Assembly: GCA_034089705.1 (NCBI GenBank)
Contig: JAXDTZ010000014.1
Location: 28,819-92,818 of the forward strand
Reading direction: 5' to 3'
Source of the DNA: Candidatus Enteromonas sp.
Lineage (GTDB): Bacteria > Bacillota_I > Bacilli_A > RFN20 > CAG-826
DNA length: 64,000 nt
Position 1 is the first letter of the stretch. Every line of letters starts with the position of its first letter. Shown one piece after another: positions 23,289-39,044 of the stretch. Under the pieces are notes generated by a model. The model was not told where the DNA came from, made no database searches, and saw only the letters and a program-made list of their open reading frames with translations. Position numbers and translations under genes: made by a program.

Positions 23289-25145
23289 TTATTTCTCGTC
23301 GTCGTAATATTCGTCGTAATCTTCGTAGTCGATGTCATCGTCCGGCAAGTCGGAATCGAGGGAGGCATTGCGGTCCTCTTCTTCCATTTGGGCGAGTTCT
23401 TGCTCGGTGTAGATTTCCATTCCGCTGCCGGGGATTTTCGGGGCGGCTTCGCGTTTGACTTCTTCTTCGGAAATCTTGCGCGGGCGCTTAGAACCCTTGG
23501 AGTAGGAAGGCTTGGAGGAAGAATGGCGGCTGCTTTCGAGCTCCTCTTCGAGGGCGGAAAGGGTGGTCGTGGTTTTGACTTCGCGCTTTTCTTCGACCGG
23601 TTCGGGGATCGGCGCAGCTTCGGGAGCAACCGGCGCGCCTTCTTCCGGGGTCGCCTCTTCGGTAGCGGCATCGCGAGCTTGGGCGGCCAAGGCGCGTTGG
23701 CTTTGGAGGGCGGCGAGGGCGGCGGCGGCGGGGTTGATGGCTTCCGCGGGGAAGTCGCTTTCGCTGGCGCTGGCCTTCGGGGTGACCGCGGGCATCTCGG
23801 GAAGGGGTTCGACGCGGGCGAGGCGGGAAGCGCGTTCGGCTTCTTCCTTCTTGCGGCGTTCTTCTTCGAGGGCGGCGAGGCGTTCGGCTTCTTTGCGTTC
23901 CGCTTCCGCGCGGGCTTCTTCCTCGCGCTTCTTCGCTTCTTCGGCGGTCTTGCGGCGGTATTCCTCTTCCGCGGCCGCCTTCTTCAAGCGGGCCTCTTCT
24001 TCTTCGGCTTCCTTGACGGTGATGAAGGAGATGCCGCTTGCGAGGGCTTCGTTCAAGCCAATGAGCTCAATGCGATACCCGGTGAGGCGGGAAGCGAGCG
24101 GGAGGTTTTGGCGATAACGGCCCATTTGTTGGCGGTAAACTTCTTCGGCGAGGACCACTTTGGCGAACTTGTTTTCTTCGTCGATCGAAACCCCGAGGGC
24201 GAGGATCGGGCGAACCGAATCCATGATGAATTTCGGGGCGTAATCGCTCCATTCGATGATGTCGATCTTTTCCTTGTTGCGGGAATTGCCGAGCTGGTTG
24301 ACGATCTTCGTGATGCGGCTTCCGCCCGGACCGATGCAGGCGCCGGTGGCGTCCACCCCTTCTTTGGTGGAGGTGACGGCGATTTTGGACCGAATGCCCG
24401 CGGCGCGACTGATGCCTTTAATGACGACCGATCCGTCGTAAATTTCGTGGATTTCCTCTTCGAACAAGCGCTTGAGGAAGCCTTCGGAGGCGCGGGTGGC
24501 TTCGATCATCGGCCCGCGTTTTTTGCCATTGACGTCTTCGCTGGGGCGAACTTCTTGGATGTAAACCTTGATGGGGTCGCCTTGCTTGAAGTATTCGTCG
24601 CGGATGAGTTCGCGGCGGGTCATTTCGATTTGGGCGCGTCCGATGTCGACGACGACCGTGCGATCATCGGCTTTGAGGACGGTTCCGGTCACCATTTCCC
24701 CGATGTGATCTTTGTAGATGTCGTAGAGTTCGGCGCGTTCGGCTTCGGCGAGGGAACCGCGGAAATAGTTCATCATCGCTTTGGTCGCGGCGTTGGAGAT
24801 GTCGTCGAAATCCGCGGGGATCGCAAAGCGGTCTCCGGGGGCGTAGGTGACGCCTTCCGGGGCCATTTCGTTGGCTTCGGATTCTTCGATCTGCAAATAA
24901 TCGTCTTCGACTTCGTCGTCTTTGCGGACTTCCTTGATTTGGGCGAGGAAAAGTTCGCCGGTTTCCGGGTTGATGTGGCATTCGACGACGGCGTCATCGC
25001 CTCCGCCGAGCACGCGAATGTAACCTTTGATGAGCGCGCTTTCCAAAGCGGAGAGGACGGCGTCGAGGGGAAGGTGTTTTTCCAGGGCGACGGCCTTGGC
25101 GGCGCTGAGCAAGTCGATTTGCTCGTCCTGTTTCTTCTTGGGCAT
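23289..25145 (-). CDS. nusA: transcription termination/antitermination factor NusA with long charged C-terminal extension
   Basis: N-terminal domain, S1 and KH1/KH2 core, then ~250 aa of E/K/R/A-rich and acidic low-complexity tail ending DDIDYEDYDEYYDDEK; AAGGAG RBS 8 nt before ATG 25145. Confidence 0.93.
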   Translation of the reverse strand: MPKKKQDEQIDLLSAAKAVALEKHLPLDAVLSALESALIKGYIRVLGGGDDAVVECHINPETGELFLAQIKEVRKDDEVEDDYLQIEESEANEMAPEGVTYAPGDRFAIPADFDDISNAATKAMMNYFRGSLAEAERAELYDIYKDHIGEMVTGTVLKADDRTVVVDIGRAQIEMTRRELIRDEYFKQGDPIKVYIQEVRPSEDVNGKKRGPMIEATRASEGFLKRLFEEEIHEIYDGSVVIKGISRAAGIRSKIAVTSTKEGVDATGACIGPGGSRITKIVNQLGNSRNKEKIDIIEWSDYAPKFIMDSVRPILALGVSIDEENKFAKVVLAEEVYRQQMGRYRQNLPLASRLTGYRIELIGLNEALASGISFITVKEAEEEEARLKKAAAEEEYRRKTAEEAKKREEEARAEAERKEAERLAALEEERRKKEEAERASRLARVEPLPEMPAVTPKASASESDFPAEAINPAAAALAALQSQRALAAQARDAATEEATPEEGAPVAPEAAPIPEPVEEKREVKTTTTLSALEEELESSRHSSSKPSYSKGSKRPRKISEEEVKREAAPKIPGSGMEIYTEQELAQMEEEDRNASLDSDLPDDDIDYEDYDEYYDDEK

Positions 25146-25173
25146 GGGTGTGTACTCCTTAATGTGTTGATGA

Positions 25174-25629
25174 TCAGAATTCAATGGCGAGGCGGGCCTC
25201 GTCGATGGTCGAATAGGGGAAGGAACGCTCGACCACGCGCGTTTTTACCTTTTGGGTCAAGACGACGGTTTCCCCGACGCTTTTTAAGGTTCCTTCGAGG
25301 ATGTTGTCCCCTTGGACCGGGGTCGAGAGGTGCAGGTGGACGTACCGCCCGAGGTAAGCGGGCAATTCTTCGAGGGCGATGCGTTTTTCCGCCCCCGCGC
25401 TGGAGAGGTCAAGGGTGTAGGCCCCGGGAATGGGGTCCTTTTCATCGAGCAAGGCGCTCACGAAGGAACTGAGTTCCACGATGTCTTCCAGCCCGATGGG
25501 GGCGGGACGGTCCACGACGACTTCGAGGACGGATTCCTTGGCTTGTTTGAATTTAACTTCGTAAAGGGAATAGCCTTTTTGCTTCAAAGGCTCGGTCAGA
25601 ATCTCAGAGACGACTTTCGCTTCGTTCAT
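25174..25629 (-). CDS. rimP: ribosome maturation factor RimP
   Basis: ~150 aa RimP (YlxS) fold directly upstream of nusA; GGAGG RBS before ATG 25629/25632. Confidence 0.85.
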   Translation of the reverse strand: MNEAKVVSEILTEPLKQKGYSLYEVKFKQAKESVLEVVVDRPAPIGLEDIVELSSFVSALLDEKDPIPGAYTLDLSSAGAEKRIALEELPAYLGRYVHLHLSTPVQGDNILEGTLKSVGETVVLTQKVKTRVVERSFPYSTIDEARLAIEF

Positions 25630-25657
25630 CATTACCTCCTGGGAAACCATCAAGAAA

Positions 25658-25676
25658 GGGTGGTTTGCAACCACCC
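25658..25676 (-). promoter_or_regulatory. perfect stem-loop in the rimP-nusA leader (candidate attenuator/terminator-like element)
   Basis: GGGUGGUU-UGC-AACCACCC (8-bp GC-rich stem) on the minus strand, followed by CUUUCUU, ~25 nt upstream of the rimP start. Confidence 0.45.
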
Positions 25677-25757
25677 AAAAGTTTTCTTGGCTTTACGGAA
25701 CCGCGACGGGATTTCCGCAACGAAAGTATACCGAATCCTTTTCCCTTTGGGAAGAGG

Positions 25758-26672
25758 TCAATTTCGCTTCTTTTGCTGGTGGAACAAGGTGGCCAAAAGA
25801 TAAGCCATCGGGGGAAGGATGTTGATGAGGTAGAGAAGAATTGGGCCAATGGGCAAGGAAACCAAAAAATCCAAAGGGAAGGCGAAGGTGAGGGATTCGG
25901 CGATCGCTTGGGGGTCATAGGCGGAAGCAAAATAGCCATAAATCGAGAACGCAAGCCCTAGGAGCAAGAAAATCGATCCGGCCTTCATGGTGACTTGGAA
26001 ATGGCGGAAGCCATCGAGTTTCCGCAAGAAAAATTCGTAAAAGGCGAGTTCCACGAGGGGCAAGAGCATGAGCATGTACCAGGGGAGGGTCGCGAAGAAA
26101 TGGGCGAAAGTGAAGTCGTAAGTGAGGAAAAAGAGGGTGATGGGGACGGAGAAAAAGGCGGCGATTCCGCAATACAGGGGAATCAATAGATCGAGGATTA
26201 CGATTCGCTTCCAAAGGGGGATGGGAAGGAATTCCACTTCGTCGTTCTTCGCCTTTTTGATGCCATAGAGGAACCAAAAGAGGCCAACAAAATCAAATAA
26301 GAAACCAAAAATCATGCTGTCGAGGGGGTAAATCCAGGTGATTCCGCCCTCCACCAAAGAATCGAAGGTTCCGTTAGCGAACAAAAGAATCGAAGAAATG
26401 GCGCTTCCGGCCCCAAATAGGCAAGTGAGGGCCCCACCAAGGACAAAGGCTAGGCGATAGGTGGTCTTGCTCCTTGGATGGAGGGCGACGTGCACGGAAA
26501 CCCCAAAGGAAAGCAAGGCGAAAGTGATGAAAAACAAAGGAAGGTAACGAAGGAAGACCGGGGCGTCGCTCGCGAGTTGGCTCACTAGCCCGGGAAGAGA
26601 AACCGAAAGGGCCATTCCTCCCAAAGCAAAGAAGATGGCTTCGAGAACCTCCAACACCCATTTCCGTTTCAT
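25758..26672 (-). CDS. polytopic integral membrane protein (unknown function)
   Basis: ~304 aa with ~9 hydrophobic segments; start ATG 26672 forms an ATGA overlap with the upstream metallophosphoesterase stop. Confidence 0.6.
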   Translation of the reverse strand: MKRKWVLEVLEAIFFALGGMALSVSLPGLVSQLASDAPVFLRYLPLFFITFALLSFGVSVHVALHPRSKTTYRLAFVLGGALTCLFGAGSAISSILLFANGTFDSLVEGGITWIYPLDSMIFGFLFDFVGLFWFLYGIKKAKNDEVEFLPIPLWKRIVILDLLIPLYCGIAAFFSVPITLFFLTYDFTFAHFFATLPWYMLMLLPLVELAFYEFFLRKLDGFRHFQVTMKAGSIFLLLGLAFSIYGYFASAYDPQAIAESLTFAFPLDFLVSLPIGPILLYLINILPPMAYLLATLFHQQKKRN

Positions 26673-27796
26673 GCGAACACCTCCTCTTGGGAAAACCCGT
26701 TCCCCCCTTCGTAAGAATCTTGGTAACTTTGGTAGCAACGGGTGAAATGGACGCTGCCATCCACGGCGATTTCGCTTAAGGTTCCTCCGATCATCCCTTC
26801 TTGGAAGTAGAGGCCATCCCCGGTTTTTAAGCCGTATCCAATGGCGATTTTGGGGGAAGTCTCCTCCAAGGAATATTCGGCGATGAAATCGTTGACGTGA
26901 TCATGGCCGAAGAAGACCCCTTTCCCGTTATGCTCGCTCATTTTGGCGAACATCGAGGTCCTCTTGTATCCGACGTAGCTTCGGGAAACCCCGAGTTCTT
27001 CGCTGGAAATGCTGTCTTTTTCGAGCATCACCCCCGAATAACGCGACAAGAATCCCGGGGCGCTCCCCGTTCCCGGGCGTCCCTTTCCTTCTTCGAGGCT
27101 TTCCCCTTTGTCTCCGGCGAGGCGGAAGGCGAATTCGAGTTCGTGCAGAGGGATATGGCAATAGACCAGGTTCGGAACGTTTTGGGCTTCTTCTTGAACT
27201 TCTTCGTACCAGCGGATTTGGTCATCGTGGATGACGTCGTAATCGTAACGGGAGGCTTGGAGTTGGGTATAGGAATTGCTGTCGATCAAAACGATGTTCC
27301 ATTTGGTTTCCTCCCCTTTTGTGAGGGAGATGGCGAAATTGGAATCTCCGGAGAGTTCGTCGTCGACTTCTTTGCAGATCGCGTATTCGCTTTTTAAGAA
27401 GGCGTCCCTCCAAGCGTTGCGGTGGTAAAAGCCTTGCCGATCATGGTTGCCATAGGTGGTCGCGTAACGAAAATGGTGCTTTTTGGCGAGTTCGTCCATC
27501 GTGGAGACGAAGGAAGAGATCGTTTTGGTGTTGGCGAGCATCGAGTTGTCGCCGGTAAAGACGACGAGGTCCGGGGAAGAGTTCGTCAGCAAGGCGTCGA
27601 GATAGGCTTTTTGGCGGGGAACATCCGTCCCGTAGGTCCAATGCAAATCGGTGAGTTGGAGCACCTTCGCGGTGTCTTTGCCCGAAAAGACATCCAACGT
27701 TTCTATATAAGAAGATAAAGGGATTTCGCCTTTGCCGCAGGAAGCAAGCAATAAGGGGAAAGCGCCCAATAACAATGCGATGGTTCGGCGTTTCAT
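26669..27796 (-). CDS. lipoprotein calcineurin-like metallophosphoesterase
   Basis: 375 aa; lipobox LLLASCG; metallophosphoesterase motifs (TDLHW, GDNS, GNHD, GHDH); ATGA overlap with the upstream gene. Confidence 0.75.
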   Translation of the reverse strand: MKRRTIALLLGAFPLLLASCGKGEIPLSSYIETLDVFSGKDTAKVLQLTDLHWTYGTDVPRQKAYLDALLTNSSPDLVVFTGDNSMLANTKTISSFVSTMDELAKKHHFRYATTYGNHDRQGFYHRNAWRDAFLKSEYAICKEVDDELSGDSNFAISLTKGEETKWNIVLIDSNSYTQLQASRYDYDVIHDDQIRWYEEVQEEAQNVPNLVYCHIPLHELEFAFRLAGDKGESLEEGKGRPGTGSAPGFLSRYSGVMLEKDSISSEELGVSRSYVGYKRTSMFAKMSEHNGKGVFFGHDHVNDFIAEYSLEETSPKIAIGYGLKTGDGLYFQEGMIGGTLSEIAVDGSVHFTRCYQSYQDSYEGGNGFSQEEVFA

Positions 27797-28716
27797 GAAA
27801 GATCCTCCGTATTGGTCTTGACCGAGCAGTGGCGTTTGGCCAAGAAGGTTTCGATGGCCCGTTCAGTATAGGGCTTGGAATACAAAGAGTCGAGGTATTG
27901 GGAAAGCGCGATGCGTTCGCCCCGGGTTTTCTCATCGAAAGCAAGACCGCGGAGAAGCGGGGTGAGTTGGTCTTTTCCATAATAGCAAGGCGCGTCGAAG
28001 AAAAAGGAACGGTACGCGGGGTTGTTCGGAAGGAACAAGGGCTTATGGAAGCGAATGGCGAAAAACGCCGACAAGGGGAAATCGGAAAAACTCGGCAAGG
28101 GGAGGATGGCGTCGCTATGGATGGCGTAAGGCAAAACCTCGTCCAAAGACTTCGCGGGGACGAGGGAAAAGTTGGCTTTCTTTTTGGGTTCTTTGGCCAA
28201 GGGGTTAAAAAGAACCAATTGGAAATCGGGGTTTTCTTTGGCCAAATCCATGGCGAAATCTTCCCCTTCCCCGTATTCGCTAAAAAGGAACACGCGGAAC
28301 CGGGCGGAAGAGTTTTGGAATAAAGAGGGGATTTCGCAGGAAGAGTTGACGGGAAAATCCAAGAAAGGTGGGATGAAAACCACTCTTTTTCGGTTCTCCC
28401 GGGTGATAAGCTCTTGGCTTAAGACCATGGCGAAGGCGGAACGTTGGAGCCTCACCCAATCCCAAAGCCGGCGAAATCGGTTTTTCGAAGATCGGGAAGA
28501 GACGAGGAAACTGATACGATCTTTCTTGGATGGGATCCGCTTCGATCCTTCCTCTTTGACAACCAAGGCACGGGAAGAGGATTTCGGGGTCATTTTTTCA
28601 TAAGCCCCATCCAGAAAGTGAGCATATTCTTGAAGCGCCAAATCCCCCAAAAAACGGGAAGCTTTGTTTCCGCGGATGGGGTAGATGGAGAAAAAAGGCG
28701 AGTTCGGCATACCCAT
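27793..28716 (-). CDS. hypothetical protein, first gene of a translationally coupled 3-gene operon
   Basis: 307-aa ORF with no motif I recognise; codon usage like neighbours; upstream region carries promoter-like and palindromic elements. Confidence 0.5.
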   Translation of the reverse strand: MGMPNSPFFSIYPIRGNKASRFLGDLALQEYAHFLDGAYEKMTPKSSSRALVVKEEGSKRIPSKKDRISFLVSSRSSKNRFRRLWDWVRLQRSAFAMVLSQELITRENRKRVVFIPPFLDFPVNSSCEIPSLFQNSSARFRVFLFSEYGEGEDFAMDLAKENPDFQLVLFNPLAKEPKKKANFSLVPAKSLDEVLPYAIHSDAILPLPSFSDFPLSAFFAIRFHKPLFLPNNPAYRSFFFDAPCYYGKDQLTPLLRGLAFDEKTRGERIALSQYLDSLYSKPYTERAIETFLAKRHCSVKTNTEDLS

Positions 28717-28725
28717 ATTATCCCC

Positions 28726-28771
28726 GATTTTCCCCGAATGGGGAAGATGGGGAAAATCCTTGAATGTTCAA
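28726..28771 (-). promoter_or_regulatory. pair of palindromes in the upstream region of the 27793-28716 operon
   Basis: GATTTTCCCC-(13 nt)-GGGGAAAATC perfect 10-bp inverted repeat (28726..28758) followed by TTGAATGTTCAA (28760..28771). Confidence 0.35.
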
Positions 28772-28950
28772 TATTGGATGGCAAGAAAAGTTTCGGCCCC
28801 CGCAAAAAAATCAAAAAAATTAACCTGGGACTGTCCAAAAGTTACTGATTCGCCGCGACTTGTTCCTAGTTCCGTTGGAAATATGCTAAATTAAGCGGGC
28901 AAAAAGGGGAACGGGAAAGGAAACTTTCTCGTTATGCTTCGCAAAAAAGG

Positions 28951-28990
28951 GGAGCAAAAAGGTCACCGCGAATGGGGTGACCTTTTTGCA
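28951..28990. terminator. rho-independent terminator downstream of the nucleotidyltransferase gene
   Basis: A5-GGTCACC-GCGAATGG-GGTGACC-T5 hairpin; A-run and T-run on both sides. Confidence 0.7.
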
Positions 28991-29002
28991 TGAATGAATC
29001 GG

Positions 29003-29914
29003 TTATTTGTCCCAAAGCGGACGGGGGTATTCCCCGCGGTCGACGAGGGCTTTGATGGAGGCGACCACTTCCGGCTTGTCTTCGCGATAGGTGACTCCAT
29101 ACCAAACGGCGGAGGTGTCAAGGACGGCGACTTGGGCGCCTTTTTCCTTCATGGCATCGCTTACGAGGGAAGGGAGGAGGTATTCGCAATCGTTGAGGTG
29201 GTCTTTGTTGGCCTCCAAGAATGGGGCGAAGCCTTCTTCGATGTGCTGCATGATGTCGCTTGTGAAGCAGAACATATTCATGGAAACGAGGGAATCGGGA
29301 TCGATGTAATGCTTGGTTCCGCCTTCTAACGGGGTCGCGGCGATCAATCCATTCTCGTGTTCGAGCTTGGATTCGACGAGTTCCACGAGGCGGTTGTTTT
29401 CATCCATGACGAGGACTCCGCGCTTGACGGAACCGTTCTCGGTCATGGTGTTTTTGGCGCGATATCCGATGTTCGCGTAGACGTTCTTGCTGCCTTTGGG
29501 CAGGGAAGAGAGGAATTTCGCGGCGACTTCAAACGCATCGCGGCCATAGAAATCGTCCGAATTGATCATGACGAAGGAATCCGAGCCGACGACGTCTTTG
29601 CAGGCCAGAATCGCTTGGGCGGTGCCAAGGGGTTTCACGCGTCCCTCGGGGAGGGTATAGCCTTCCGGCAAGAGGGAGAGTTTTTGGAAAACGTAATGGG
29701 TTTCGATCTTGTCTTCGACCCGTTTGCCGATGGTGCTTTTGAAAATTTCGAGGTTCTCTTCTTTGATAATGAAGATGACTTTGTCAAAACCGGCTTTTTT
29801 GGCGTCGTATATCGAATAGTCGATAATGAAATTTCCCGCTTCGTCGATCGGTTCGATTTGTTTGAGTCCGCCGAAGCGGCTGCCCATTCCGGCAGCAAGG
29901 ATAACGAGGTCCAT
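29003..29914 (-). CDS. sugar-phosphate nucleotidyltransferase (NTP_transferase family, LicC/GlmU-N-like)
   Basis: 303 aa; N-terminal LAAGMGSRFGGLKQ pyrophosphorylase signature, GTAQAIL motif. Confidence 0.72.
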   Translation of the reverse strand: MDLVILAAGMGSRFGGLKQIEPIDEAGNFIIDYSIYDAKKAGFDKVIFIIKEENLEIFKSTIGKRVEDKIETHYVFQKLSLLPEGYTLPEGRVKPLGTAQAILACKDVVGSDSFVMINSDDFYGRDAFEVAAKFLSSLPKGSKNVYANIGYRAKNTMTENGSVKRGVLVMDENNRLVELVESKLEHENGLIAATPLEGGTKHYIDPDSLVSMNMFCFTSDIMQHIEEGFAPFLEANKDHLNDCEYLLPSLVSDAMKEKGAQVAVLDTSAVWYGVTYREDKPEVVASIKALVDRGEYPRPLWDK

Positions 29915-29986
29915 GATGAATTGCTCCTAAACGTCATCATTGTACGCGCAAAATACGAGCGCGCAAAGTTCAAAAATGCCCTATGA

Positions 29987-30799
29987 CTATTTCTTTTTGC
30001 CCTTTGGGGCGAATCGTTCTTTCCAGGCGGAACGCCGGCGTTCCTTTCGATGGATTTTTTCGGCTTGGGCGCTTGCGGTTCTCTCTTCGCCCAGCTTCTT
30101 TTTCTTGGCTAGGAATTCTTCGTGGGCTTCGTCGAGTTCCTTCCGGAGCTTGGTCTCGTAAGGGCCCGCTTCTTTGGGGAGTTCCACGGTGGGAACGTAA
30201 CCCGCGAAGCTGTCGGCGACTTTGGAAATTCCGGATTTCCATTTGTTGGAAATGGATTCTTTGACGTAATCGACGACGAGGTTTTTCACGTCATCCCCCA
30301 AGGTTTTCCGATCTTCTTCTAAGGATAAGCGAAACAGATCGATATAATGGAACACGAAGGATTTGAGCAGTTCGAAGCCGATTTGGACGACGACGAGGAC
30401 CACCATCCCGATAGCGAGGAAGCGCTCGGCGTCATGGACTTCGAGGAAGCAAATGCTCACGAGGGAAATCATCGCGGCGATGAAGCGGAGCCCGATGATG
30501 CAATAGGACAAAAAAGCCCGGACTTGCTCATGGGAATAGCGGCGTTCCAGTTCCCGATTCGATTTCCCCGAAAGGTAAACGGCGAACACCGCGACGGAAA
30601 TGCCGGCGATCAAAGAATAGATGCTGAGGCGAACCCAATGGGCTTGGGTCGCGTGGATGAAAATCGAATAACCGAAAAATAAGAGGGAAACGCAAAAGGA
30701 AATGATTCCGATCGCGAATACGATTTGGGCGATGTTTTTCTGGAGTTTGTCTAGCAAGGCTCGCGTGTAAGTTAGAGGTTCGTTTCCCATCCTTATCAT
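29987..30799 (-). CDS. membrane protein with 4-5 TM segments and a charged K/E/R-rich C-terminal tail
   Basis: 270-aa ORF; hydrophobic helices in first 160 aa, then coiled-coil-like charged tail ending RFAPKGKKK. Confidence 0.55.
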   Translation of the reverse strand: MIRMGNEPLTYTRALLDKLQKNIAQIVFAIGIISFCVSLLFFGYSIFIHATQAHWVRLSIYSLIAGISVAVFAVYLSGKSNRELERRYSHEQVRAFLSYCIIGLRFIAAMISLVSICFLEVHDAERFLAIGMVVLVVVQIGFELLKSFVFHYIDLFRLSLEEDRKTLGDDVKNLVVDYVKESISNKWKSGISKVADSFAGYVPTVELPKEAGPYETKLRKELDEAHEEFLAKKKKLGEERTASAQAEKIHRKERRRSAWKERFAPKGKKK

Positions 30800-30955: not shown

Positions 30956-31957
30956 ATGATTGAAGTAAAACACGTCAAAAAGTATTTCTCGCGCCCTTTT
31001 CGCGAACCGGGGTTGATTGGCGCCGTCAAAAGCCTTTTCACCCGCAAGAAAATCATCACGAAAGCCGTCGATGACGTGTCATTCGCCATCACGGACGGGG
31101 AGATCGTCGGTTACATTGGCTCCAATGGGGCGGGGAAAAGCACCACCATCAAAATGATGACGGGGATCTTAACCCCAAGCGAAGGGGAAATCCTTTACGA
31201 CGGCAAGCGCCCTTATGACCATCATGACCGCCGCTCCTTGCTCAAAGACATCGGCGTCGTTTTCGGGCAGAGAACCCAGCTTTGGTGGGATTTGCCCTTG
31301 CGCGATTCCTTCGATCTTTACCGAGATATCTACGAAATCCCCAAGGACGAATACGAGGCGCGCGTCCAATATCTCAGCGAATTGCTCGGGCTAGAGCCCC
31401 TATGGATGTCCCAGGTCCGGACCATGTCCTTGGGCCAACGGATGCGAGCCGATTTGGCGGCGAGTTTGATCCATCGCCCGAAAGTTTTGTTCTTGGACGA
31501 ACCGACCATCGGCCTCGATGTGCTCGTCAAAGACAAAATCGTCGAAGCCATCCATTCCATCAATCGGGATTTCGGGACCACCGTCATCTTGACCACCCAC
31601 GACATGAAGGACATCCAGAACCTTTGCGAGCGAATCATCATCCTCGATGAAGGGAAAATCCTCTATGACGGGCCGCTTTCCACCATCAAGGAACGCTTTG
31701 GCGACATTCGGAAACTCCGCCTTTTGACCGAAGATGAAATCGATCTTTCCGCCCTCCAAGGGGCTTTCCCTGGAGTGCAGGAAATCAAAAAGAGCGAGGA
31801 CGGGTATTCGGAAATCGCTTATAACGCCTCAAAAGTTTCCCCCGAGGACTTGCTCCAATACCTCATCGGCAAGATTCATTTTACCGACATCAAAATGGAG
31901 GAAACGAGCCTCGCCGATATCGTCAAGCGCATCTACGCGACCAAGGAGATCGGATGA
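30956..31957 (+). CDS. ABC transporter ATP-binding protein (DrrA/ABC-2 type with C-terminal accessory domain)
   Basis: Walker A GSNGAGKST, signature LSLGQRMR, Walker B LFLDEPT; ~90-aa C-terminal extension. Confidence 0.9.
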   Translation: MIEVKHVKKYFSRPFREPGLIGAVKSLFTRKKIITKAVDDVSFAITDGEIVGYIGSNGAGKSTTIKMMTGILTPSEGEILYDGKRPYDHHDRRSLLKDIGVVFGQRTQLWWDLPLRDSFDLYRDIYEIPKDEYEARVQYLSELLGLEPLWMSQVRTMSLGQRMRADLAASLIHRPKVLFLDEPTIGLDVLVKDKIVEAIHSINRDFGTTVILTTHDMKDIQNLCERIIILDEGKILYDGPLSTIKERFGDIRKLRLLTEDEIDLSALQGAFPGVQEIKKSEDGYSEIAYNASKVSPEDLLQYLIGKIHFTDIKMEETSLADIVKRIYATKEIG

Positions 31958-32808
31958 GAAAATACCGCGGATTCATCAAAGCGAGCTTCCTTGAGGTTTT
32001 TGCGTTCCGCTTCGACATTTGGAGTTGGATCGTCCAAGACATTTTGACGGTCATCTGCACGGTTTTCCTTTGGCTCGCGATTTACGCCCAACAAGATTCC
32101 GGGGCGTCGATTTCCGGGTACAAGGAAGCCGAATTGATTGGGTATATGGTCTTCATTTCCCTCAGCCTCACTTGGAGCGGGGCCACCAACACATTCCGAA
32201 ACGTCGGGGACGACATTTACCAAGGCAACATCGCCAACAGTTTGACCAAGCCGATCCATTACCGGAGATGGCAATTCTTCAACGCGATTGGGCAAATGCT
32301 CGCGAACTTCACCCTCTTTTTCCTTCCGATGTTAGTGGCGAGCGCGCTATTTTTGCAGTTGATCTTCGCTTCTAGCGGAGGGCTTGGGGCGATCTTCTCC
32401 TCCTTTTCTTGGTGGAACGTCCCTTTCTACCTCATCGCTGGGCTCCTCGCCCTCGTCATTACCGACAGCCTCGATTTCATCATCGCCCAACTCAGTTTCC
32501 TCACCAAATCGGTTTTCGGATTGATGATCATCAAATCCACCATCTTCGCGTTTTTAAGCGGGGGAATGATTCCTTTTTCCTTCTTCCCCAAAGGCGTTCA
32601 AGAAGCCCTTGCCTATTTGCCGTTTGCCTCTTTGGCTTCCACCCCCGTCAACCTGCTTTTGGGGCGATATAGCCTGACGAGTTCCGTTCCTTTGCAAAAC
32701 GCTTGGTTCGTTTTGGGGCTGAGCGCCTTATACGCGATTGCCCTCTACGCGGCAAGCGAGATGGCGTGCGCGAAAATGATCCGCCACGTCGAAAGCGCGG
32801 GAGGTTAG
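31954..32808 (+). CDS. ABC-2 family transporter permease
   Basis: 284 aa, 6 predicted TM helices; ATGA overlap with the ATPase stop. Confidence 0.8.
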   Translation: MRKYRGFIKASFLEVFAFRFDIWSWIVQDILTVICTVFLWLAIYAQQDSGASISGYKEAELIGYMVFISLSLTWSGATNTFRNVGDDIYQGNIANSLTKPIHYRRWQFFNAIGQMLANFTLFFLPMLVASALFLQLIFASSGGLGAIFSSFSWWNVPFYLIAGLLALVITDSLDFIIAQLSFLTKSVFGLMIIKSTIFAFLSGGMIPFSFFPKGVQEALAYLPFASLASTPVNLLLGRYSLTSSVPLQNAWFVLGLSALYAIALYAASEMACAKMIRHVESAGG

Positions 32809-32809
32809 C

Positions 32810-33664
32810 ATGATCCGGAAATACTTCAAACTCTACCCGCATTACCTCGCGATGGCGGTGAAAAGCAAACTGATTTACCGCCTCGATGCGGCCCTTGGCA
32901 TCATCGGGTTCTTCTTCAGCAACGGGGCGACCTTCCTTTCCCTTTATTTGGCCTTGAGCTCCATCGGCGGGCTCGGGAAATGGAGTTTCATGCACATCAT
33001 TTTCCTCTATGGGTTCTTGATGATTCCGATGGGCATCGACCACATGCTGACCGACCGGCTTTGGAATTACGGAGGCTGGCTCATCCATAATGGCGAACTC
33101 GATCGCATTTTGATGAAGCCGTTGAATCCCCTCTTCCAAATGTGCGCGGAATTCTTCCAAGAAGGGGGCATCGGGGAGATTGTCCTCGGCGTGGCCTTCA
33201 TCGCCATCAGCGCCCCCAACATCTCGGTGACCATCTCCTTCTCGAGCGTCATGGCTTTGATCGTCGGGGGATTTTTCTCGATCTTCATCTATTTCGCCAT
33301 CAAACTTGGGTCAATGAGCGTCGCTTTCTACACCCATCGTTCCATCTCCTTGATGTCGGCGCTTTACAACGTCAAGGATTTCGGGCGTTACCCCGGGAGC
33401 ATCTACCATTCGTCCCCCAAGAAAGTTATCGGCAACGTCTTCTACAATATCTTGCTGTTCCTCTTGCCTTTTGGCTTAGTTGGATATCTGCCGGTATCCT
33501 GCATTTTGTTCCCCGGCGACCCCATTCCCTTCTTGTGGTTCTCCATTCCCCCTTCTTCTTGGCTCGTCGCCGGCATCATCGCCGTGGTGGCGATCGCTCA
33601 CTTCTCCTTTGCCTATTGGTTGTTCCGGCGAGGCATTCGCCGTTATGGCTCCGCCGGGTCGTGA
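32810..33664 (+). CDS. ABC-2 family transporter permease (second subunit)
   Basis: 284 aa, 6 TM; GGGAGG RBS; 1 nt after the previous stop. Confidence 0.8.
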   Translation: MIRKYFKLYPHYLAMAVKSKLIYRLDAALGIIGFFFSNGATFLSLYLALSSIGGLGKWSFMHIIFLYGFLMIPMGIDHMLTDRLWNYGGWLIHNGELDRILMKPLNPLFQMCAEFFQEGGIGEIVLGVAFIAISAPNISVTISFSSVMALIVGGFFSIFIYFAIKLGSMSVAFYTHRSISLMSALYNVKDFGRYPGSIYHSSPKKVIGNVFYNILLFLLPFGLVGYLPVSCILFPGDPIPFLWFSIPPSSWLVAGIIAVVAIAHFSFAYWLFRRGIRRYGSAGS

Positions 33665-33684
33665 TTGTTTTTGGGTTAGTTTCC

Positions 33685-33715
33685 TTGCAAAATTTCAGGG
33701 TTACTATATAGTAAC
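33685..33715 (+). promoter_or_regulatory. sigma-A-like promoter (TTGCAA-16 nt-TATAGT) with a perfect 16-bp palindrome GTTACTATATAGTAAC over the -10 box
   Basis: -35 at 33685..33690, -10 at 33707..33712, palindrome 33700..33715, ~25 nt upstream of the first lipoprotein gene. Confidence 0.5.
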
Positions 33716-33741
33716 TGGGTTTGAAAAGGAAAAGATGTCGT

Positions 33742-35661
33742 ATGAAAAAATATTCTTCTGCCTTATTTGCGTTAGCGGCTTCTGCGTTGCTGCTCGTTTC
33801 TTGTAGCGTCGGGAACTCCGCTTCTTCGCTTGATTCTATTGCCCCGTCGAATTCGGAAACTTCGAAGGAGCCAACCCCCGACTCCTCGAAAGAGACGAGT
33901 TCGGAGGATTCCGAATCGCTGGTTTCTTCCGAAGAAGAGAGCAAAAGCGAAACGGTCACCGAACCGAGCGAAGAGCCCCAGGAATTCACGATTTCCCTCG
34001 TGGGGGATCCTTCTTCCGTAGGCGTCGAGGTGCAAGCCCCTTCTTCCGCGATCGAAGGGTCGACGGTCACTTTGGAAGTCACCGTTAGTGAGGGCCATAT
34101 CCTCGAATACATCCGTCTTTACGCCCCAACTAGCGCCGGTGGCGGGGTGCGCGTGAGCCCGGACGAAAAGGGAGCCTATACGTTTGTGATGCCTTCCCAA
34201 AATCTCACGATTTATTACAAAGGCGTCGTGGGATACACCGTCTCATTTGCCAGTGACCACGCGAGCGCCGTTTTGGCGGAAGATTCCGCGCCTTATGACC
34301 TTTTTGGGGAAGGCTATCCCGTCTACGTCATGAAAAACACCGTGGAAGAAGGGTATTCCTTCACCGGCTTCACCGTGGAAGATGAAAACGGGAATTCCAT
34401 CGAAACTTGGAACGACCGCATCGACCAAGTGGGATTCCTCATGCCCGCGGGCAACGTGACCGTCACTGCCCACGCGGTGGCGGTGGACGCCGTTTTCGTC
34501 GAACTGGCCGAGACCTATTCCAACGGATGGGCCATTGACATGAACGAACCCGCGAGCGGATTCGAACTTCAGATCGACATCGACGGGCGCATCACCCTCA
34601 AGACCGACTGGGCGGATCCCTATTGGACGGGCATCGCGACCTATTCGGGGGGAGTTCTTTCCGCTGACCTTTGCCATTTGACGGGCGATGGGTATTATAC
34701 CGACGCGTTCCGCCATTTCGACGCGACCTTCCATCAGGACCGCGATTACGTGACTGCAAAACTCTCGAGCGGGGAAACCGTTTACAACTACCTCTTCGCC
34801 AGAACGAGCGAAGCGATGGTGGTGAAGAAGATCTTCGCTTCCGATGCCTTGGATGGGGGATACGTCTTGAAGCACCGCATCGCCCTGGTAAGCGCCGCCA
34901 GCGGCGACTTCTTCTGCTATACGACCCCAGACCGCAAGGCCAGCTATTCCTTCTTGCGCGCTTTCGAAGCCTCGAGCGGCGAAGAAGTCCATAACCTCTT
35001 TAAAGGCGGGAACTACGTCTTAAAGGACGCTAGCGGCAACGAAGTCGTCGCGGTGAGCTATGACGGAAGCAAAATCTCCGTTTCGGGGCTCGAAAGGGGG
35101 ACCTACGCGGTCGATGAGTCCACCTCCATCTCCTTGGACGGGTTCGGAAATTACTCCAAAGGCGAAGAAACGGGAACCTACGTGCTCAAAGGCGACCAAT
35201 TGAAGCTCTCAAGCGGGGAAGAATACACGATCGACCGCGAAGCAAAAACGGCCACGCGCGTAGAAAAAACCGCTGCCCATCCTTTTTCAGGCAAAACTTA
35301 CGCGACAAGCGAAACCAATCCCATCAAGATTTTCGAAGAGAGCTATGACGATTACGCACCCAACGATTTCCAATTCCTCATCCAATTCGGACTCGGGGAA
35401 GGGGAGATCGAACAAGTCTCCTTCTTGCGGCTAGGAGACCCCTGGCCCCAAGTGGGCAGCACGAAAACCCTCACGACCAACATTTCCTACACCTATAGCG
35501 AAACCACCGGGCGTTTGACGGCAAGGCTGGGAAACGACACCGCGACGATGGTCTACGACGCGGAGAGCGATTCCTTCCGTTATTCCGGCACGATCTGGTA
35601 TTCCAATCAAGGGGATTACCAGACGAACAACAAAGACCTCACCTTGACCCTTAAGGCATAA
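33742..35661 (+). CDS. lipoprotein (640 aa) with S/E-rich linker and two copies of a recurrent ~85-aa module
   Basis: signal peptide with lipobox LLVSCS; AGGAAA RBS; modules ending TFVMPSQNLTIY and FLMPAGNVTVTAHA. Confidence 0.8.
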   Translation: MKKYSSALFALAASALLLVSCSVGNSASSLDSIAPSNSETSKEPTPDSSKETSSEDSESLVSSEEESKSETVTEPSEEPQEFTISLVGDPSSVGVEVQAPSSAIEGSTVTLEVTVSEGHILEYIRLYAPTSAGGGVRVSPDEKGAYTFVMPSQNLTIYYKGVVGYTVSFASDHASAVLAEDSAPYDLFGEGYPVYVMKNTVEEGYSFTGFTVEDENGNSIETWNDRIDQVGFLMPAGNVTVTAHAVAVDAVFVELAETYSNGWAIDMNEPASGFELQIDIDGRITLKTDWADPYWTGIATYSGGVLSADLCHLTGDGYYTDAFRHFDATFHQDRDYVTAKLSSGETVYNYLFARTSEAMVVKKIFASDALDGGYVLKHRIALVSAASGDFFCYTTPDRKASYSFLRAFEASSGEEVHNLFKGGNYVLKDASGNEVVAVSYDGSKISVSGLERGTYAVDESTSISLDGFGNYSKGEETGTYVLKGDQLKLSSGEEYTIDREAKTATRVEKTAAHPFSGKTYATSETNPIKIFEESYDDYAPNDFQFLIQFGLGEGEIEQVSFLRLGDPWPQVGSTKTLTTNISYTYSETTGRLTARLGNDTATMVYDAESDSFRYSGTIWYSNQGDYQTNNKDLTLTLKA

Positions 35662-35667
35662 CCATTT

Positions 35668-37500
35668 ATGAAAAAACAAGCATTATTTCTCTTATCTCTT
35701 TCCTTTTTGCTCGCTTCTTGCGGGCTAAACGCTTCCAGTTCTTCTTCCGATTCCATCGAGGAATCGCCCGTTTCCAGCGAATCCCTCCCTTCGAGCGAAT
35801 CGGTGGATTCTTCCCTTTCAAGCGATGAGCCGTTTTACCCTTCCATCCCCGGGACTCCCGAGATGGACGATGAAGCGGAGCACGACGCGGGAGGCCTGAG
35901 CGAACTCGACGTCCGCGAGGCGCTTCTCGAAGCTTACGAATCCAAGAAGACCCTGCGTTCCAACGTGGTAAGGAGCCAAGTCTACCTTCGGGGCAACACC
36001 GAAGGGTATGGGGTGGAACTCACCGAAACCCATTACGACTTCTACGAATCCCCGACCTATGGGACCATCATGACCGGTCGGGCCGAATATCGAAAGGGAA
36101 GCGGGGTTTATTCCCCCGTGATCGACCAAGATAGCGGCTACGGGTACCACATCCAAAGCTACGTGGACGGGGGATACCTCCATTACCTCGAAAAGGCCGA
36201 CGAGGGGGTCACTAGCCGCGTCAGTTACGACAACGTTTCGAAGAACAACCGCTACAACAACCTTTACACGATTTATTCGGCGAACCGCGACCTCGCCATC
36301 ATGGAAGACGTGCTCGATGCGATCGACAAGCAATACGGTTCCGCTTCCGAAACCGCAAGGTACATCGACACGATTGGGGATTCGATCATCTTCAAAATCA
36401 CGACTCACGAATACTCGCCCTACACCTACTACAATTACGACGATTTCTTCTATGTCCACCTCGACAAAACGACGAAAAAAGTCACCCGGGTGGATAGCGG
36501 ATTCCTCGTCTACGACCTCGGCGGGGATTTGAAAAACGAAGAGGCGATCCAAGCCATGCGAATCGATTCCGTTTCCCAATTCGATTACGAGAAACGGCCC
36601 GAGTTCCAAGGGACGCTCTACAACGAAAACGACGTGGAGAAGGTCTATGGACTCGCTCCCCAGCACAAAGTGGACTACTCCTCTTGGGAAGATGGGGTCT
36701 TGAGCACCGATCGTAGCGTCGAGATTCTCCAAAACCTCCAAACCTTCGCCGAAGGCACGACTTCTTCTACGGCGACCTTCCATTACGGCGGTTTCGTCGA
36801 TCCCCAATCCCAAGCCGACGAAGACAGCGGGGAATACGCCATCTTAGGCGAAGCTAGCGGCACCGCCACGACCACCCTCTACGAAGGGGATTTCGCCGAA
36901 ATCCAAGGACAGATCTCGCTCGTCAACAAAGAGGGAACCAAGGAAATCTCGATGGTTTCCCAAACAATCGCCGACGACGAAGGGATGCGCATCGCGACGG
37001 CGTATTCGGATGTGTTAAAGAGCCATAAACACGTTTTCAAAGCCAGCGAAGTCTCCGACACCGACCCGTATTTGGGCATCTCTCCCATCTATCGTCCGGA
37101 AGTCTTCCATCCTTTTGAAATCGCCGCCGGATGCGGGCTCAATTGCGACAAGAATTCCCCGATCAACGACGACAGCAACACCTACACTTCCGCGGGGGCC
37201 TTGAGCAAATCCGGGAATGTGATCACGGGCAAACTCACCAAGGTGTACCACAAGAACGTCTGGACGCCTTATTGGACTTACAGCGCTTCCTTTACCATCG
37301 AAGATGGCTTCTTGAGTTCCATCACTTTGGACGTTTCTACCTACCGCGAAAGCGATACCGCGCATTACGAATTCGATTCTTCCTTTGCCTTCGCGATGAA
37401 AAAAGGCGAGCCGGTTCTCCCCTTCTCTGGGGACATCCTTGATGTTTCTTCGTTAAAAGAAGGATCGGTCATGGCCAAGAACGAATGGATTTACATGTAA
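35668..37500 (+). CDS. lipoprotein (610 aa), unknown function
   Basis: MKKQALFLLSLSFLLASCG lipobox followed by S/E/D-rich low-complexity linker; 6 nt after the previous gene. Confidence 0.8.
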   Translation: MKKQALFLLSLSFLLASCGLNASSSSSDSIEESPVSSESLPSSESVDSSLSSDEPFYPSIPGTPEMDDEAEHDAGGLSELDVREALLEAYESKKTLRSNVVRSQVYLRGNTEGYGVELTETHYDFYESPTYGTIMTGRAEYRKGSGVYSPVIDQDSGYGYHIQSYVDGGYLHYLEKADEGVTSRVSYDNVSKNNRYNNLYTIYSANRDLAIMEDVLDAIDKQYGSASETARYIDTIGDSIIFKITTHEYSPYTYYNYDDFFYVHLDKTTKKVTRVDSGFLVYDLGGDLKNEEAIQAMRIDSVSQFDYEKRPEFQGTLYNENDVEKVYGLAPQHKVDYSSWEDGVLSTDRSVEILQNLQTFAEGTTSSTATFHYGGFVDPQSQADEDSGEYAILGEASGTATTTLYEGDFAEIQGQISLVNKEGTKEISMVSQTIADDEGMRIATAYSDVLKSHKHVFKASEVSDTDPYLGISPIYRPEVFHPFEIAAGCGLNCDKNSPINDDSNTYTSAGALSKSGNVITGKLTKVYHKNVWTPYWTYSASFTIEDGFLSSITLDVSTYRESDTAHYEFDSSFAFAMKKGEPVLPFSGDILDVSSLKEGSVMAKNEWIYM

Positions 37501-37515
37501 ACGAGGTTTTCCGAC

Positions 37516-39042
37516 ATGAAAAAACGCATTTTGTTCCTTTCTTCTCTCCTCTCCCTCGCTTCTTGCAGCGCGGGGGGAATTTCTTCGAGCAAACCCCAAG
37601 AAAGCGGCCTTTCTACCTTCGATAGCGCCCTTTCCAGCGAATCGGCGGAAGAATCTTTGAAAGAAGAAACTTCTTCCCTTTCCGAGAAAGAGCAATTCCT
37701 TTCTTATTTGACTTCCTTGAATGAAACCCATCGCTACACCGCTCGCCTTTCCTATTCCGTCCTTTCGGAAGACGGGGAAGAGCACATGTTCCCGTATGGG
37801 ATTCAAGAGCAATACGGCGATCAGGCCCTTCTTTGGTTGGACGAAGAGAGGGCCATCAATTCCGGGGTCCTCATCAACGGGGAACAAGGGGTGTTCGATT
37901 TCTCGATCGTAAACGGCGAGTTGGTCTTAGGGAACTTCTCTTTCTTCGATGCCGGAGAGCCCATGGGAGAGCTCTACAGCACCCCCATCGACTTCGCCAA
38001 CCCCCGTTATTGGGTGGAAGACGAGGAAGGCGGATTCCACAGCAATTCCCGCCAAGTTTCTAGCGCCCTGGCTTCCTTAAGCGGCCTTCAGGACTTGGAG
38101 AACTACTATGGCGTCGAATTCAGCGCCGGGACAGCGTTCGCCTCCCTTTCCGACAACGGATTCTCCGTGCGGATGGATGCCTTGCTCGAAGGCGAAGTGG
38201 CCGCAAGAGGCTATATTGAGGTCGTGGATATCGGCGAAACGAGCAACCAAATCGTGGAGGATTATTTGAAGAATCCCCGCGTCGTTACCGCGAGAACGCA
38301 GTGGAGCGACGACGATCTGACCACCATCTCCCACTACTTTGCGGGCGATCTTCCCTTTCCCGAAGGGGCGAGCTACACCTTGTCGGTGAATTCGCTCGAC
38401 GATTACCTCGAAGTCATCATCGCCGATTGCGCTTCCGGGGACCTATCCGCCTCTTATAAAGCGCAGCTCGAAGCTCTCGGATACCACGTCGAATTTAAAT
38501 CCGAACATAGCCAATACGTCGCGGAGAAGGAAACCGTCGGGGAGAAGGAAATCGCCACCGACCTCGTGATTTTCTCCTATTTTTCCCAAAGCGAGATCGA
38601 ACAAGCCTATGGCAAAGAAACCGCGGAATTCTATCCTTATGGGCGCTTCCAAATCGAAGCCTACACCGACACCGTGGAAATCCACACCTACGAAGAAGGA
38701 ATCGCCGCGTTAGCAAAATACAGCCAATTCCCCACGCCGAGTTTTTCTGACGTGAGCCACACGGTCATCAATGACCTCACCGAATCCTTCGGGGCGTATC
38801 TGAGCGCCTACGTCACCGTTTCCTTCTATTGCGAGAACCAAACCGTCGCCACCGCCAACCTCAACGCTTACGCCGAGGTTTTGAAGGAAGCCGGTTTTAC
38901 GCTCGATGCCGATTCCACCGAAACCCACATCGCCTTGACGAGCAGCACCGGAGAAAAGGCGAAATACGTCGACCTCAACTTGGCATTGACGGAAGATAAT
39001 TCTTACCTTGGATATTTTGAGGTCACGTATATCGCGGAGTAA
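37516..39042 (+). CDS. lipoprotein (508 aa), unknown function
   Basis: MKKRILFLSSLLSLASCS lipobox, S/E-rich linker. Confidence 0.8.
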   Translation: MKKRILFLSSLLSLASCSAGGISSSKPQESGLSTFDSALSSESAEESLKEETSSLSEKEQFLSYLTSLNETHRYTARLSYSVLSEDGEEHMFPYGIQEQYGDQALLWLDEERAINSGVLINGEQGVFDFSIVNGELVLGNFSFFDAGEPMGELYSTPIDFANPRYWVEDEEGGFHSNSRQVSSALASLSGLQDLENYYGVEFSAGTAFASLSDNGFSVRMDALLEGEVAARGYIEVVDIGETSNQIVEDYLKNPRVVTARTQWSDDDLTTISHYFAGDLPFPEGASYTLSVNSLDDYLEVIIADCASGDLSASYKAQLEALGYHVEFKSEHSQYVAEKETVGEKEIATDLVIFSYFSQSEIEQAYGKETAEFYPYGRFQIEAYTDTVEIHTYEEGIAALAKYSQFPTPSFSDVSHTVINDLTESFGAYLSAYVTVSFYCENQTVATANLNAYAEVLKEAGFTLDADSTETHIALTSSTGEKAKYVDLNLALTEDNSYLGYFEVTYIAE

Positions 39043-39044
39043 CC

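Follow-up and report, generated by a model that had tools for sequence, protein, structure and literature searches.

A degenerate GT4 glycosyltransferase and a candidate surface lipid module of phosphoesterase and eight-helix membrane protein in Candidatus Enteromonas

The 64,000-nt stretch of DNA analysed here (the window) comes from Candidatus Enteromonas sp. (GenBank assembly GCA_034089705.1, contig JAXDTZ010000014.1, positions 28,819 to 92,818 of the forward strand) and contains, upstream of rimP-nusA-ylxR-L7Ae-infB, five minus-strand open reading frames (ORFs). They fall into two units, namely a gene for a 270-aa membrane protein followed by one for a nucleotidyltransferase, and a translationally coupled three-gene operon. 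The operon begins with an apparent orphan that is, judged by profile alignments, a descendant of a glycosyltransferase family 4 (GT4) enzyme of the diacylglycerol or lipoteichoic acid (LTA)-anchor type, of which the fold-determining C-terminal half has been kept; it continues with a lipoprotein metallophosphoesterase and ends with an eight-helix transmembrane (8-TM) protein belonging to a family without any description. The phosphoesterase and the 8-TM protein constitute the conserved core. We hold this anatomy and the evolutionary identity of the region with high confidence, and with moderate confidence we take a degenerate GT4 joined to a surface phosphoesterase/8-TM lipid module to be the best explanation of the region as a whole. 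The new content is modest but concrete: an orphan protein is explained as a probable pseudo-glycosyltransferase, and an undescribed 8-TM family is found fixed to a lipoprotein phosphoesterase in uncultured gut Bacilli. Current knowledge is not overturned by these findings, which offer a testable target.

Enteromonas corresponds to the GTDB genus UBA733 of the order RFN20, family CAG-826, in which one species has a genome of ~1.2 Mb with 57% GC (PMC8035907). CAG-826 is predicted to be devoid of peptidoglycan, and the standard synthesis of wall teichoic acid and LTA is likewise predicted to be absent from these uncultured orders (PMC10868615). Accordingly, the term “cell envelope” here denotes a lipoprotein-bearing membrane. 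Members of RFN20/CAG-826 are widespread in the gut, have genomes of ~1.2 Mb and have never been cultured, and in these predicted wall-less organisms the membrane would be the only envelope.

The three operon genes occupy 27793 to 28716 (degenerate GT4), 26669 to 27796 (375-aa metallophosphoesterase) and 25758 to 26672 (304-aa polytopic membrane protein) on the minus strand. The first gene encodes 307 aa if read from the ATG at 28716, yet translation probably starts at the second ATG at 28710, giving 305 aa, in agreement with P0001 and with the alignment to L001. A reading of the window made earlier from the sequence alone (the sequence-only reading) had chained these genes by two ATGA stop/start overlaps, and both are found where it placed them (27793..27796 and 26669..26672). 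It had also suggested a check of gene-neighbourhood conservation; the three overlapping genes are a genuine and conserved unit. The relatives’ contigs that were compared with the window are numbered as loci (L001 to L014, L073 and others). L001, a metagenome-assembled genome of Candidatus Enteromonas sp., has the same gene order as the window. In L003 and L004 the order is a 281-aa membrane protein, a 303-aa nucleotidyltransferase, a GT4, the phosphoesterase, the polytopic protein and rimP-nusA, so that the five-gene order is common to four genomes. L011 carries, in this order, a GT4 (a 61% identical orthologue), DegV, the phosphoesterase, the polytopic protein and rimP.

Taken alone, the first gene gives little away. 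Profile searches of the 307-aa protein yielded no matches in Pfam, NCBIfam or the PDB, and a full HMMER scan of 1.84 billion representative proteins returned two relatives, a 95% identical twin and the L001 protein. The latter is 40% identical to the window protein, compared with 70-92% for the neighbouring genes. The link to GT4 was reached through the contigs of more distant phosphoesterase relatives, where the first-gene slot of L003, L004 and L011 is filled by an intact GT4, of which the window protein is the positional orthologue. BLASTP matches both the window protein and its L001 orthologue to the C-terminal half of these GT4 proteins (1e-10 and 2e-11), and hhalign of the orphan against the GT4 group gives a probability of 95.8% and an E-value of 7e-9. 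Moreover, when hidden Markov models (HMMs) of the orphan and GT4 groups were run against every ORF of the window and of eight loci, each matched the other group alone. The two can be aligned collinearly between a linker motif (ENITYIPNYVS versus KRVVFIPPFLD) and the C-terminus; hhalign detected no similarity before residue 154, nor does any appear in the collinear alignment ahead of the linker motif, which lies near residue 105. By these measures, the C-terminal Rossmann domain is homologous to that of the GT4 orthologues, although Pfam itself is silent. The sequence-only reading had seen no recognisable homology in this gene, a view that gives way to remote GT4 homology, and the degeneration of the GT4 explains why the protein looks like an orphan in sequence searches.

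The alignment also reveals what has been lost. The N-terminal region of the window protein is shortened to ~105 aa and is unrecognisable as an acceptor domain, and the N-terminal Gly-rich loop of the orthologues (SVSGQGVGS) is reduced to A--SRFLGD. The Arg/Lys donor-phosphate motif (GQVQTRKG in the orthologues) reads SEYGEGED or SEDGSGEN, and the EX7E motif (SELFPMSILEA in the orthologues) reads SD-FPLSAFFA or ND-FPLSSFLA, such that the second Glu is replaced by Phe or Leu and one residue is deleted. In addition, a 15-residue segment of the GT4 orthologues is deleted in the window protein. In the diacylglycerol-dependent GT4 enzyme GTcp, which carries the motif GRVAxEKN, the R190A and K195A mutants and the mutant of the equivalent Glu are almost inactive (PMC8231724). 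A TagF-like identity of the orphan (CDP-glycerol glycerophosphotransferase) was also considered and dropped, as it found no support in the PDB or Pfam and the GT4 orthologues explain the same motifs.

Loss of motifs would also be expected of a decaying pseudogene, that is, of a functionless ORF that is still open either owing to its recent origin or because expression of the phosphoesterase gene depends on coupling to its translation. The rapid evolution evident from the 40% identity, the highest ratio of non-synonymous to synonymous substitution rates (dN/dS) in the cluster and an extremely narrow taxonomic range all fit such a decay. Yet the dN/dS is 0.28 against the close strain and ~0.38 against L001 (neighbours, 0.03-0.19), hence clearly below 1, and non-synonymous changes relative to the close strain are fewer than expected under neutrality (p = 2e-4). 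Furthermore, the frame of ~305 codons is open in three genomes, two of which are separated by saturated synonymous sites (nominal dS ~1.6 between the two species), and the orphan family retains 95 invariant positions, including the C-terminal blocks YLDSLYS and AIETFL. A functionless ORF is therefore improbable. Since the motifs have been lost and the dN/dS nevertheless shows purifying selection, the first gene probably encodes a catalytically dead pseudo-enzyme under relaxed purifying selection. As such, it would provide a clean and datable case of a glycosyltransferase turning non-catalytic while still translationally coupled to its old partners.

The intact orthologues of the sister genomes indicate what the ancestor may have done. 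They comprise 353-365 aa (363-365 aa in L003 and L004), and the copies of L003, L004 and L011 contain PF00534/PF13692. Their best NCBIfam matches are the IagA/BgsA LTA-glycolipid-anchor transferases (8e-39) and the processive diacylglycerol glucosyltransferases (7e-27). The curated cut-offs lie well above the scores, as the L003 and L011 proteins score 134 and 130 bits where the IagA/BgsA model requires 460, and 94 and 92 bits where that of Dgs requires 500. From these family relationships we infer that the acceptor of the intact GT4 orthologues is a lipid.

The second gene encodes a clear member of the metallophosphoesterase superfamily (PF00149 Metallophos, 5.2e-11, 43.8 bits against a gathering threshold of 21.5), in which the motifs DxH, GD, GNH(D/E), H, GH and GHxH are all present and D50, H52, D83, N117, H118, H214, H298 and H300 are invariant in 40 homologues. 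The window protein has the lipobox MKRRTIALLLGAFPLLLAS followed by the cysteine (LLAS before Cys); a lipobox is found in 112 of 120 phosphoesterase homologues, and Cys20 is invariant in the 40. Because both the lipobox cysteine and the metal-binding and catalytic residues are invariant, the protein is predicted to be lipidated and would therefore work as an active enzyme anchored on the outside of the membrane. The subfamily is further characterized by an insert of ~75 aa between motifs IV and V, and the Pfam scan found no 5_nucleotid_C domain. Weak NCBIfam matches point to LpxG in 31 of 40 members (best E-value, 4.5e-9) and to YaeI in 27 of 40, with the window protein scoring 19 bits against the LpxG cut-off of 350; source annotations of its relatives read “CpdA”. 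A metagenome scan with an Enteromonas-specific phosphoesterase alignment gave no matches.

For the third gene, the sequence-only reading had counted about nine transmembrane segments and suggested GT-C, ligase or flippase folds as candidates to be looked for. The AlphaFold2 model, built from three sequences (mean predicted local distance difference test, pLDDT, 53.9), shows eight long helices instead. According to hhalign (93-96%), these are arranged as two homologous four-helix halves in a 4+4 parallel repeat. In both halves a [YF]P[LI]D motif, placed where the last helix begins, forms the end; by the positive-inside rule it would lie on the outer side of the membrane. The motif fades in distant members, and the 8-TM alignment contains no stretch of sufficient conservation for a metagenome scan. 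The protein matches no Pfam or NCBIfam family, a profile of eight sequences found nothing in the PDB at E-values up to 10, and Foldseek of the low-confidence model against the PDB returned nothing below an E-value of 0.8, with only chance matches of the G protein-coupled receptor type. Neither in sequence nor in fold could similarity to GT-C, O-antigen ligase, Wzx/MOP flippase, LtaS-type or any other described membrane proteins be shown with Pfam, NCBIfam, the PDB and Foldseek of a low-confidence model.

The defining property of the 8-TM protein is its company. When looked up by exact protein sequence, the two genes were adjacent in 12 of 12 loci, usually with overlapping stop and start codons, and the partner in these 12 contigs comprised 299-322 aa and had no Pfam match. 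A metagenome scan added 80 loci, so that the scripted survey comprised 93. Defining the subfamily as phosphoesterases that match the family HMM with an E-value of 1e-70 or better and have DNA downstream, the partner directly follows the phosphoesterase in all 36 members (35 loci and the window). The surveyed partners are polytopic ORFs of 275-346 aa, which iterated HMM searches join into a single family of 36. In the same survey, this partner is missing from more distant phosphoesterases, which belong to another subfamily. The 8-TM protein is thus an obligate genomic partner of the phosphoesterase.

The pair itself travels through different surroundings, including rimP-nusA, def together with the gene for RNase J, rpsD, a ParA-like gene together with that of a low-molecular-weight phosphatase, toxin-antitoxin genes and a phosphonate-type ABC transporter. 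In L005 (9233-9743) and L012 (7312-7557) a gene for a MazE-type antitoxin lies between the pair and rimP, followed in L005 by a weakly YafQ-like gene. The pair evolves under purifying selection (dN/dS 0.11-0.19), and several of its sites are among core housekeeping genes (rimP-nusA, def/rnj, rpsD). Given this setting, the purifying selection and the presence of the pair in every subfamily locus examined, the two proteins are probably important for building or feeding the membrane of these organisms.

What the pair might act on is hinted at by some of the genes that accompany it. Of the 28 loci whose downstream DNA is long enough, 10 form, together with the window, a rimP-linked clade, and in 10 of these 11 loci a GT4 or its remnant, a DegV or a lipase-like gene lies upstream. 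A GT4 or its relic precedes the pair in the window, L001, L003, L004 and L011. DegV/FakB overlaps the start of the phosphoesterase gene in L006 and L011, lies one gene away in L014 and L073 and 3.8 kb upstream in L012, and L005 harbours a 788-aa protein with a weak match to Lipase_3 (class-3 lipase). On this basis, a membrane-lipid head-group phosphodiesterase mechanism can be tentatively proposed by analogy, which we regard as possible but somewhat doubtful. Bound to each other at the outer membrane face, the phosphoesterase and its 8-TM partner would cleave phosphodiester head groups from lipids, either of the membrane or derived from the host, and would release diacylglycerol in the manner of a phospholipase C. 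The adjacent GT4 of ancestral and sister genomes would glycosylate this diacylglycerol, and the neighbouring DegV/FakB would handle the fatty acids. In Enteromonas the transferase activity would have been lost, with the remnant staying on as a non-catalytic and probably membrane-peripheral subunit. A still bolder version, which we consider unlikely, envisages an undescribed two-component outer-face enzyme that strips phospho-head groups from host or own lipids, either in a phospholipase C-like manner or by remodelling phosphoglycolipids, with the dead GT4 serving as a cytoplasmic regulatory or scaffolding subunit.

Several points weigh against a lipid module of this kind. Almost no polar residue is conserved across the wider 8-TM family, so that the protein could be a carrier, an anchor or a scaffold, and the structural model on which its fold rests is poor, as is that of the orphan (single-sequence AlphaFold, pLDDT 38.6). 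The inactivity of the pseudo-glycosyltransferase is inferred from its motifs. The matches of the phosphoesterase to LpxG, YaeI, SpdA, CpdA and SbcD are far below the cut-offs and derive mainly from generic N-terminal metal motifs. Most loci with the pair have neither a GT4 nor DegV nearby, and some have neighbours suggestive of nucleotide or phosphate salvage: L009 has a nucleoside hydrolase, PfkB and Phosphodiest beside the pair, L013 a phosphonate-type ABC transporter and L005 a 5'-nucleotidase. Finally, PlcP, the proteobacterial enzyme compared below, is intracellular, whereas the phosphoesterase here is a predicted extracellular lipoprotein.

The salvage neighbours lead to nutrient scavenging as a different account of the pair, in which phosphoesters outside the cell, such as nucleotides, cyclic nucleotides or glycerophosphodiesters, are the substrates of the phosphoesterase, the 8-TM protein acts as a permease for the products and the link to the glycosyltransferase merely reflects historical synteny. 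A reduced, wall-less and host-dependent lifestyle would suit such a role, as would the weak similarity to the phosphodiesterases YaeI, SpdA and CpdA, the “CpdA” annotation of relatives, the salvage genes of L009, L013 and L005 and the many loci in which the pair occurs without GT4 or DegV. Against a permease, the 4+4 repeat of the 8-TM protein matches no transporter family, and conserved polar residues that might point to a binding site are missing. Surface nucleotidases typically have a 5_nucleotid_C domain, which the phosphoesterase lacks, and lipid-related genes lie upstream in nearly all rimP-linked loci, even though the lipase-like match is weak and one of the DegV genes is distant. On balance we regard scavenging as doubtful and favour, by a small margin, the reading as a lipid module.

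Upstream of the operon lie the two remaining genes of the cluster, both on the minus strand. The 303-aa sugar-phosphate nucleotidyltransferase (29003..29914) belongs to PF00483 (NTP_transferase, 9.8e-13) and matches PDB entry 3pnn over its full length (2.3e-71), an NTP_transferase-fold protein deposited as a “conserved domain protein” whose PDB name gives no function. The LicC/GlmU-like identity advanced from the sequence could not be upheld beyond this general PF00483 membership, since the LicC, GlmU, GalU, RmlA and MurU models score 12-37 bits against cut-offs of 250-505. The enzyme is 92% identical between the window and L001 and is strongly constrained (dN/dS 0.03-0.075). As noted in the sequence-only reading, it has its own terminator, an intrinsic hairpin with a 14-bp perfect stem, an 8-nt loop and a T-run at 28954..28989 (minus strand), which closes the nucleotidyltransferase unit; a hairpin and T-run after the gene are also read from the sequences of L001, L003 and L004, and in L004 the hairpin is predicted by folding as well. 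The 270-aa membrane protein (29987..30799), with four hydrophobic helices and a charged cytoplasmic tail of ~110 aa, is encoded directly upstream of the nucleotidyltransferase. It belongs to no curated family, its Pfam and NCBIfam searches returning sub-threshold noise only, and is 72% identical in L001 and 48% identical in L003 (dN/dS 0.17). Its start is probably the ATG at 30790 (MGNEPLTYTR), as the L003 orthologue begins at the equivalent residue. Both genes keep their position in at least four genomes and, as a unit, accompany the operon only in genomes near Enteromonas, and the nucleotidyltransferase is absent from most loci with the phosphoesterase/8-TM pair. It is a separate transcription unit outside the conserved core.

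These observations bear on an active envelope-decoration module, in which the nucleotidyltransferase would activate a sugar or alcohol phosphate, the 307-aa protein would transfer it, and the phosphoesterase and polytopic protein would finish or export a glycolipid or a teichoic acid-like polymer. Its appeal lies in the five-gene order kept in four genomes and in the resemblance of the intact first-gene orthologue to LTA-anchor glycolipid transferases. The combination of an external metal-dependent phospho-enzyme with a polytopic membrane part also recalls LtaS. Because its donor-binding and catalytic motifs are lost, however, the window copy (without the Gly-rich loop, the R/K motif and the second EX7E Glu) can hardly be the transferase of an active decorating module; the nucleotidyltransferase, with its own terminator and much stronger constraint, stands apart from the pair; peptidoglycan and standard teichoic acid synthesis are predicted to be absent from the host lineage; and searches of Pfam, NCBIfam, the PDB and Foldseek gave no sulfatase/LtaS, GT-C, Wzx/MOP or ligase signal. 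We consider active decoration very unlikely. Of the glycolipid or teichoic acid decoration proposed in the sequence-only reading, the link to glycolipids survives through the intact GT4 of L003, L004 and L011, whereas the remainder falls with the probably dead transferase of the window, a nucleotidyltransferase outside the unit and the predicted lack of teichoic acid-like machinery.

Two candidate regulator sites had been proposed upstream of the operon, one of which has found some support. The 10-bp perfect inverted repeat GATTTTCCCC/GGGGAAAATC with its 13-nt spacer is present at 28726..28758 (unstranded), where it could serve as an operator or as a 5' hairpin, and it lies within a nested group of four ATYTTCCCC-like 9-mers. 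When the intergenic region was shuffled 2000 times with dinucleotides preserved, 42 shuffles contained a perfect inverted repeat of at least 10 bp (p ~0.02), and the repeat is thus moderately unusual but not extreme. It is kept in L002, and a related repeat, TTTCCCTT/AAGGGAAA, is found at the same place in L001; RNA folding of the region is not significantly better than that of shuffles (z = -1.0). The adjacent TTGAATGTTCAA, which had been described as a palindrome, is imperfect (TTGAA-NN-TTCAA, 5+5 with a 2-nt spacer). Sites of this type number 98 in the window, where ~62 are expected, and TTGAATGTTCAA is broken to TGGAACATTCAA in the strain with the 95% identical orphan protein and absent from the congener. 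As it is common, mutated in a close strain and absent from a congener, it is treated as a chance occurrence and rejected as a regulator site.

A -10-like hexamer (GATAAT or TATACT) precedes the first-gene ATG by 6-7 nt in the window (GATAAT, 28717-28722, minus strand, 6 nt upstream of the ATG at 28710), L001 (7065-7070), L003 (~5900), L004 (~5905) and L011 (88-93), and might represent a -10 box or the region of the ribosome-binding site. Its recurrence in five loci and the lack of a Shine-Dalgarno sequence at the GT4 start of L011 suggest a possibly leaderless mRNA for the first gene. In that case the inverted repeat would be an operator over the promoter, which we regard as a lead only. XRE-family helix-turn-helix genes, which are candidate local regulators, directly adjoin the pair in L007 (5290-5889, minus strand) and L073 (4842-5801), and no XRE-type gene is adjacent to it in the window.

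At the other end of the operon, a 128-nt spacer (25629-25757) separates the 8-TM gene from rimP and contains, on the minus strand, a promoter-like site (TTCCCA-17-TATACT, 25725..25753) and a terminator-like hairpin (GGGTGGTTGCAAACCACCC followed by TTTCTT, 25658..25676) before AGGAGG-ATG. The hairpin could be the terminator of the operon or an attenuator in the rimP-nusA leader. Translation of rimP probably starts at the ATG at 25629 (151 aa), the annotated GTG at 25674 presumably being too far upstream; the protein comprises 151-158 aa in relatives. An Rfam scan at gathering thresholds and a tRNA scan of the window gave no matches, and the empty Rfam scan speaks against a known riboswitch or leader upstream of the operon or of rimP.

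Further features of the window can be summarized briefly. NusA (23289-25184, minus strand; 631 aa) has a Lys/Glu/Ala-rich C-terminal extension of ~250 aa with an acidic Asp/Tyr/Glu tail and is similarly long in relatives (590-624 aa). Divergent plus-strand genes at 30956-40826 encode an ABC ATPase (333 aa) and two permease-like proteins of 284 aa, followed by a series of large ORFs (646, 610, 508 and 593 aa). Lipoboxes (LLVSCS and LLASCG) together with linkers rich in Ser and Glu are present in the first two, and in L001 and L003 the cluster is likewise flanked by ORFs of comparable size. The cumulative GC skew peaks at ~31 kb (~30.8-31 kb) and has its minimum at ~54 kb. As the peak coincides with the switch in gene orientation, the five-gene cluster lies at a divergent strand-switch point. 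The segment 62001-64000 has a GC content of 37%, compared with ~53% elsewhere in the window, and may be foreign or intergenic DNA.

Three groups of described proteins are suited for comparison with the operon. The first are the GT4 diacylglycerol transferases, comprising IagA/BgsA, Dgs, the Acholeplasma MGlcDAG synthase and Agt/GTcp. The intact orthologues have their best NCBIfam matches among these families, and the window protein is collinear with the linker and the C-terminal Rossmann half. In contrast to these enzymes, the window protein has no Pfam match, no Gly-rich loop, no R/K motif and no second EX7E Glu, and not even the intact orthologues come close to the curated cut-offs. The second group are LpxG/LpxH and YaeI, among which LpxG, a lipid-substrate enzyme of the same superfamily, is the commonest weak match of the phosphoesterase. 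The scores are far below the cut-offs, however, and the ~75-aa insert and the lipoprotein anchor set the phosphoesterase apart. A wall-less organism of the Gram-positive type is not expected to have a lipid A pathway.

The closest parallel to the proposed module is PlcP-Agt of Proteobacteria. PlcP is a Mn-dependent phospholipase C of the metallophosphoesterase superfamily, which is often encoded in an operon with a GT4 glycolipid synthase (PMC4796936, PMC8231724). Likewise, a PF00149 protein and a diacylglycerol-type GT4 share one operon in L003, L004 and L011, and a dead relic of the transferase is left in the window; most other loci lack this arrangement. The likeness thus rests on the shared superfamily and on GT4 adjacency. 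Apart from the side of the membrane on which the enzymes are located, the systems differ in the obligatory 8-TM partner, which has not been reported for PlcP systems, in the order of the genes, which is reversed here with the glycosyltransferase first, in the predicted wall-less Bacillota host and in the probable death of the window transferase. Should the bolder version of the two-component outer-face enzyme be true, the operon would correspond to the lipid renovation of PlcP-Agt in a Gram-positive and extracellular form, built around a new family of membrane proteins.

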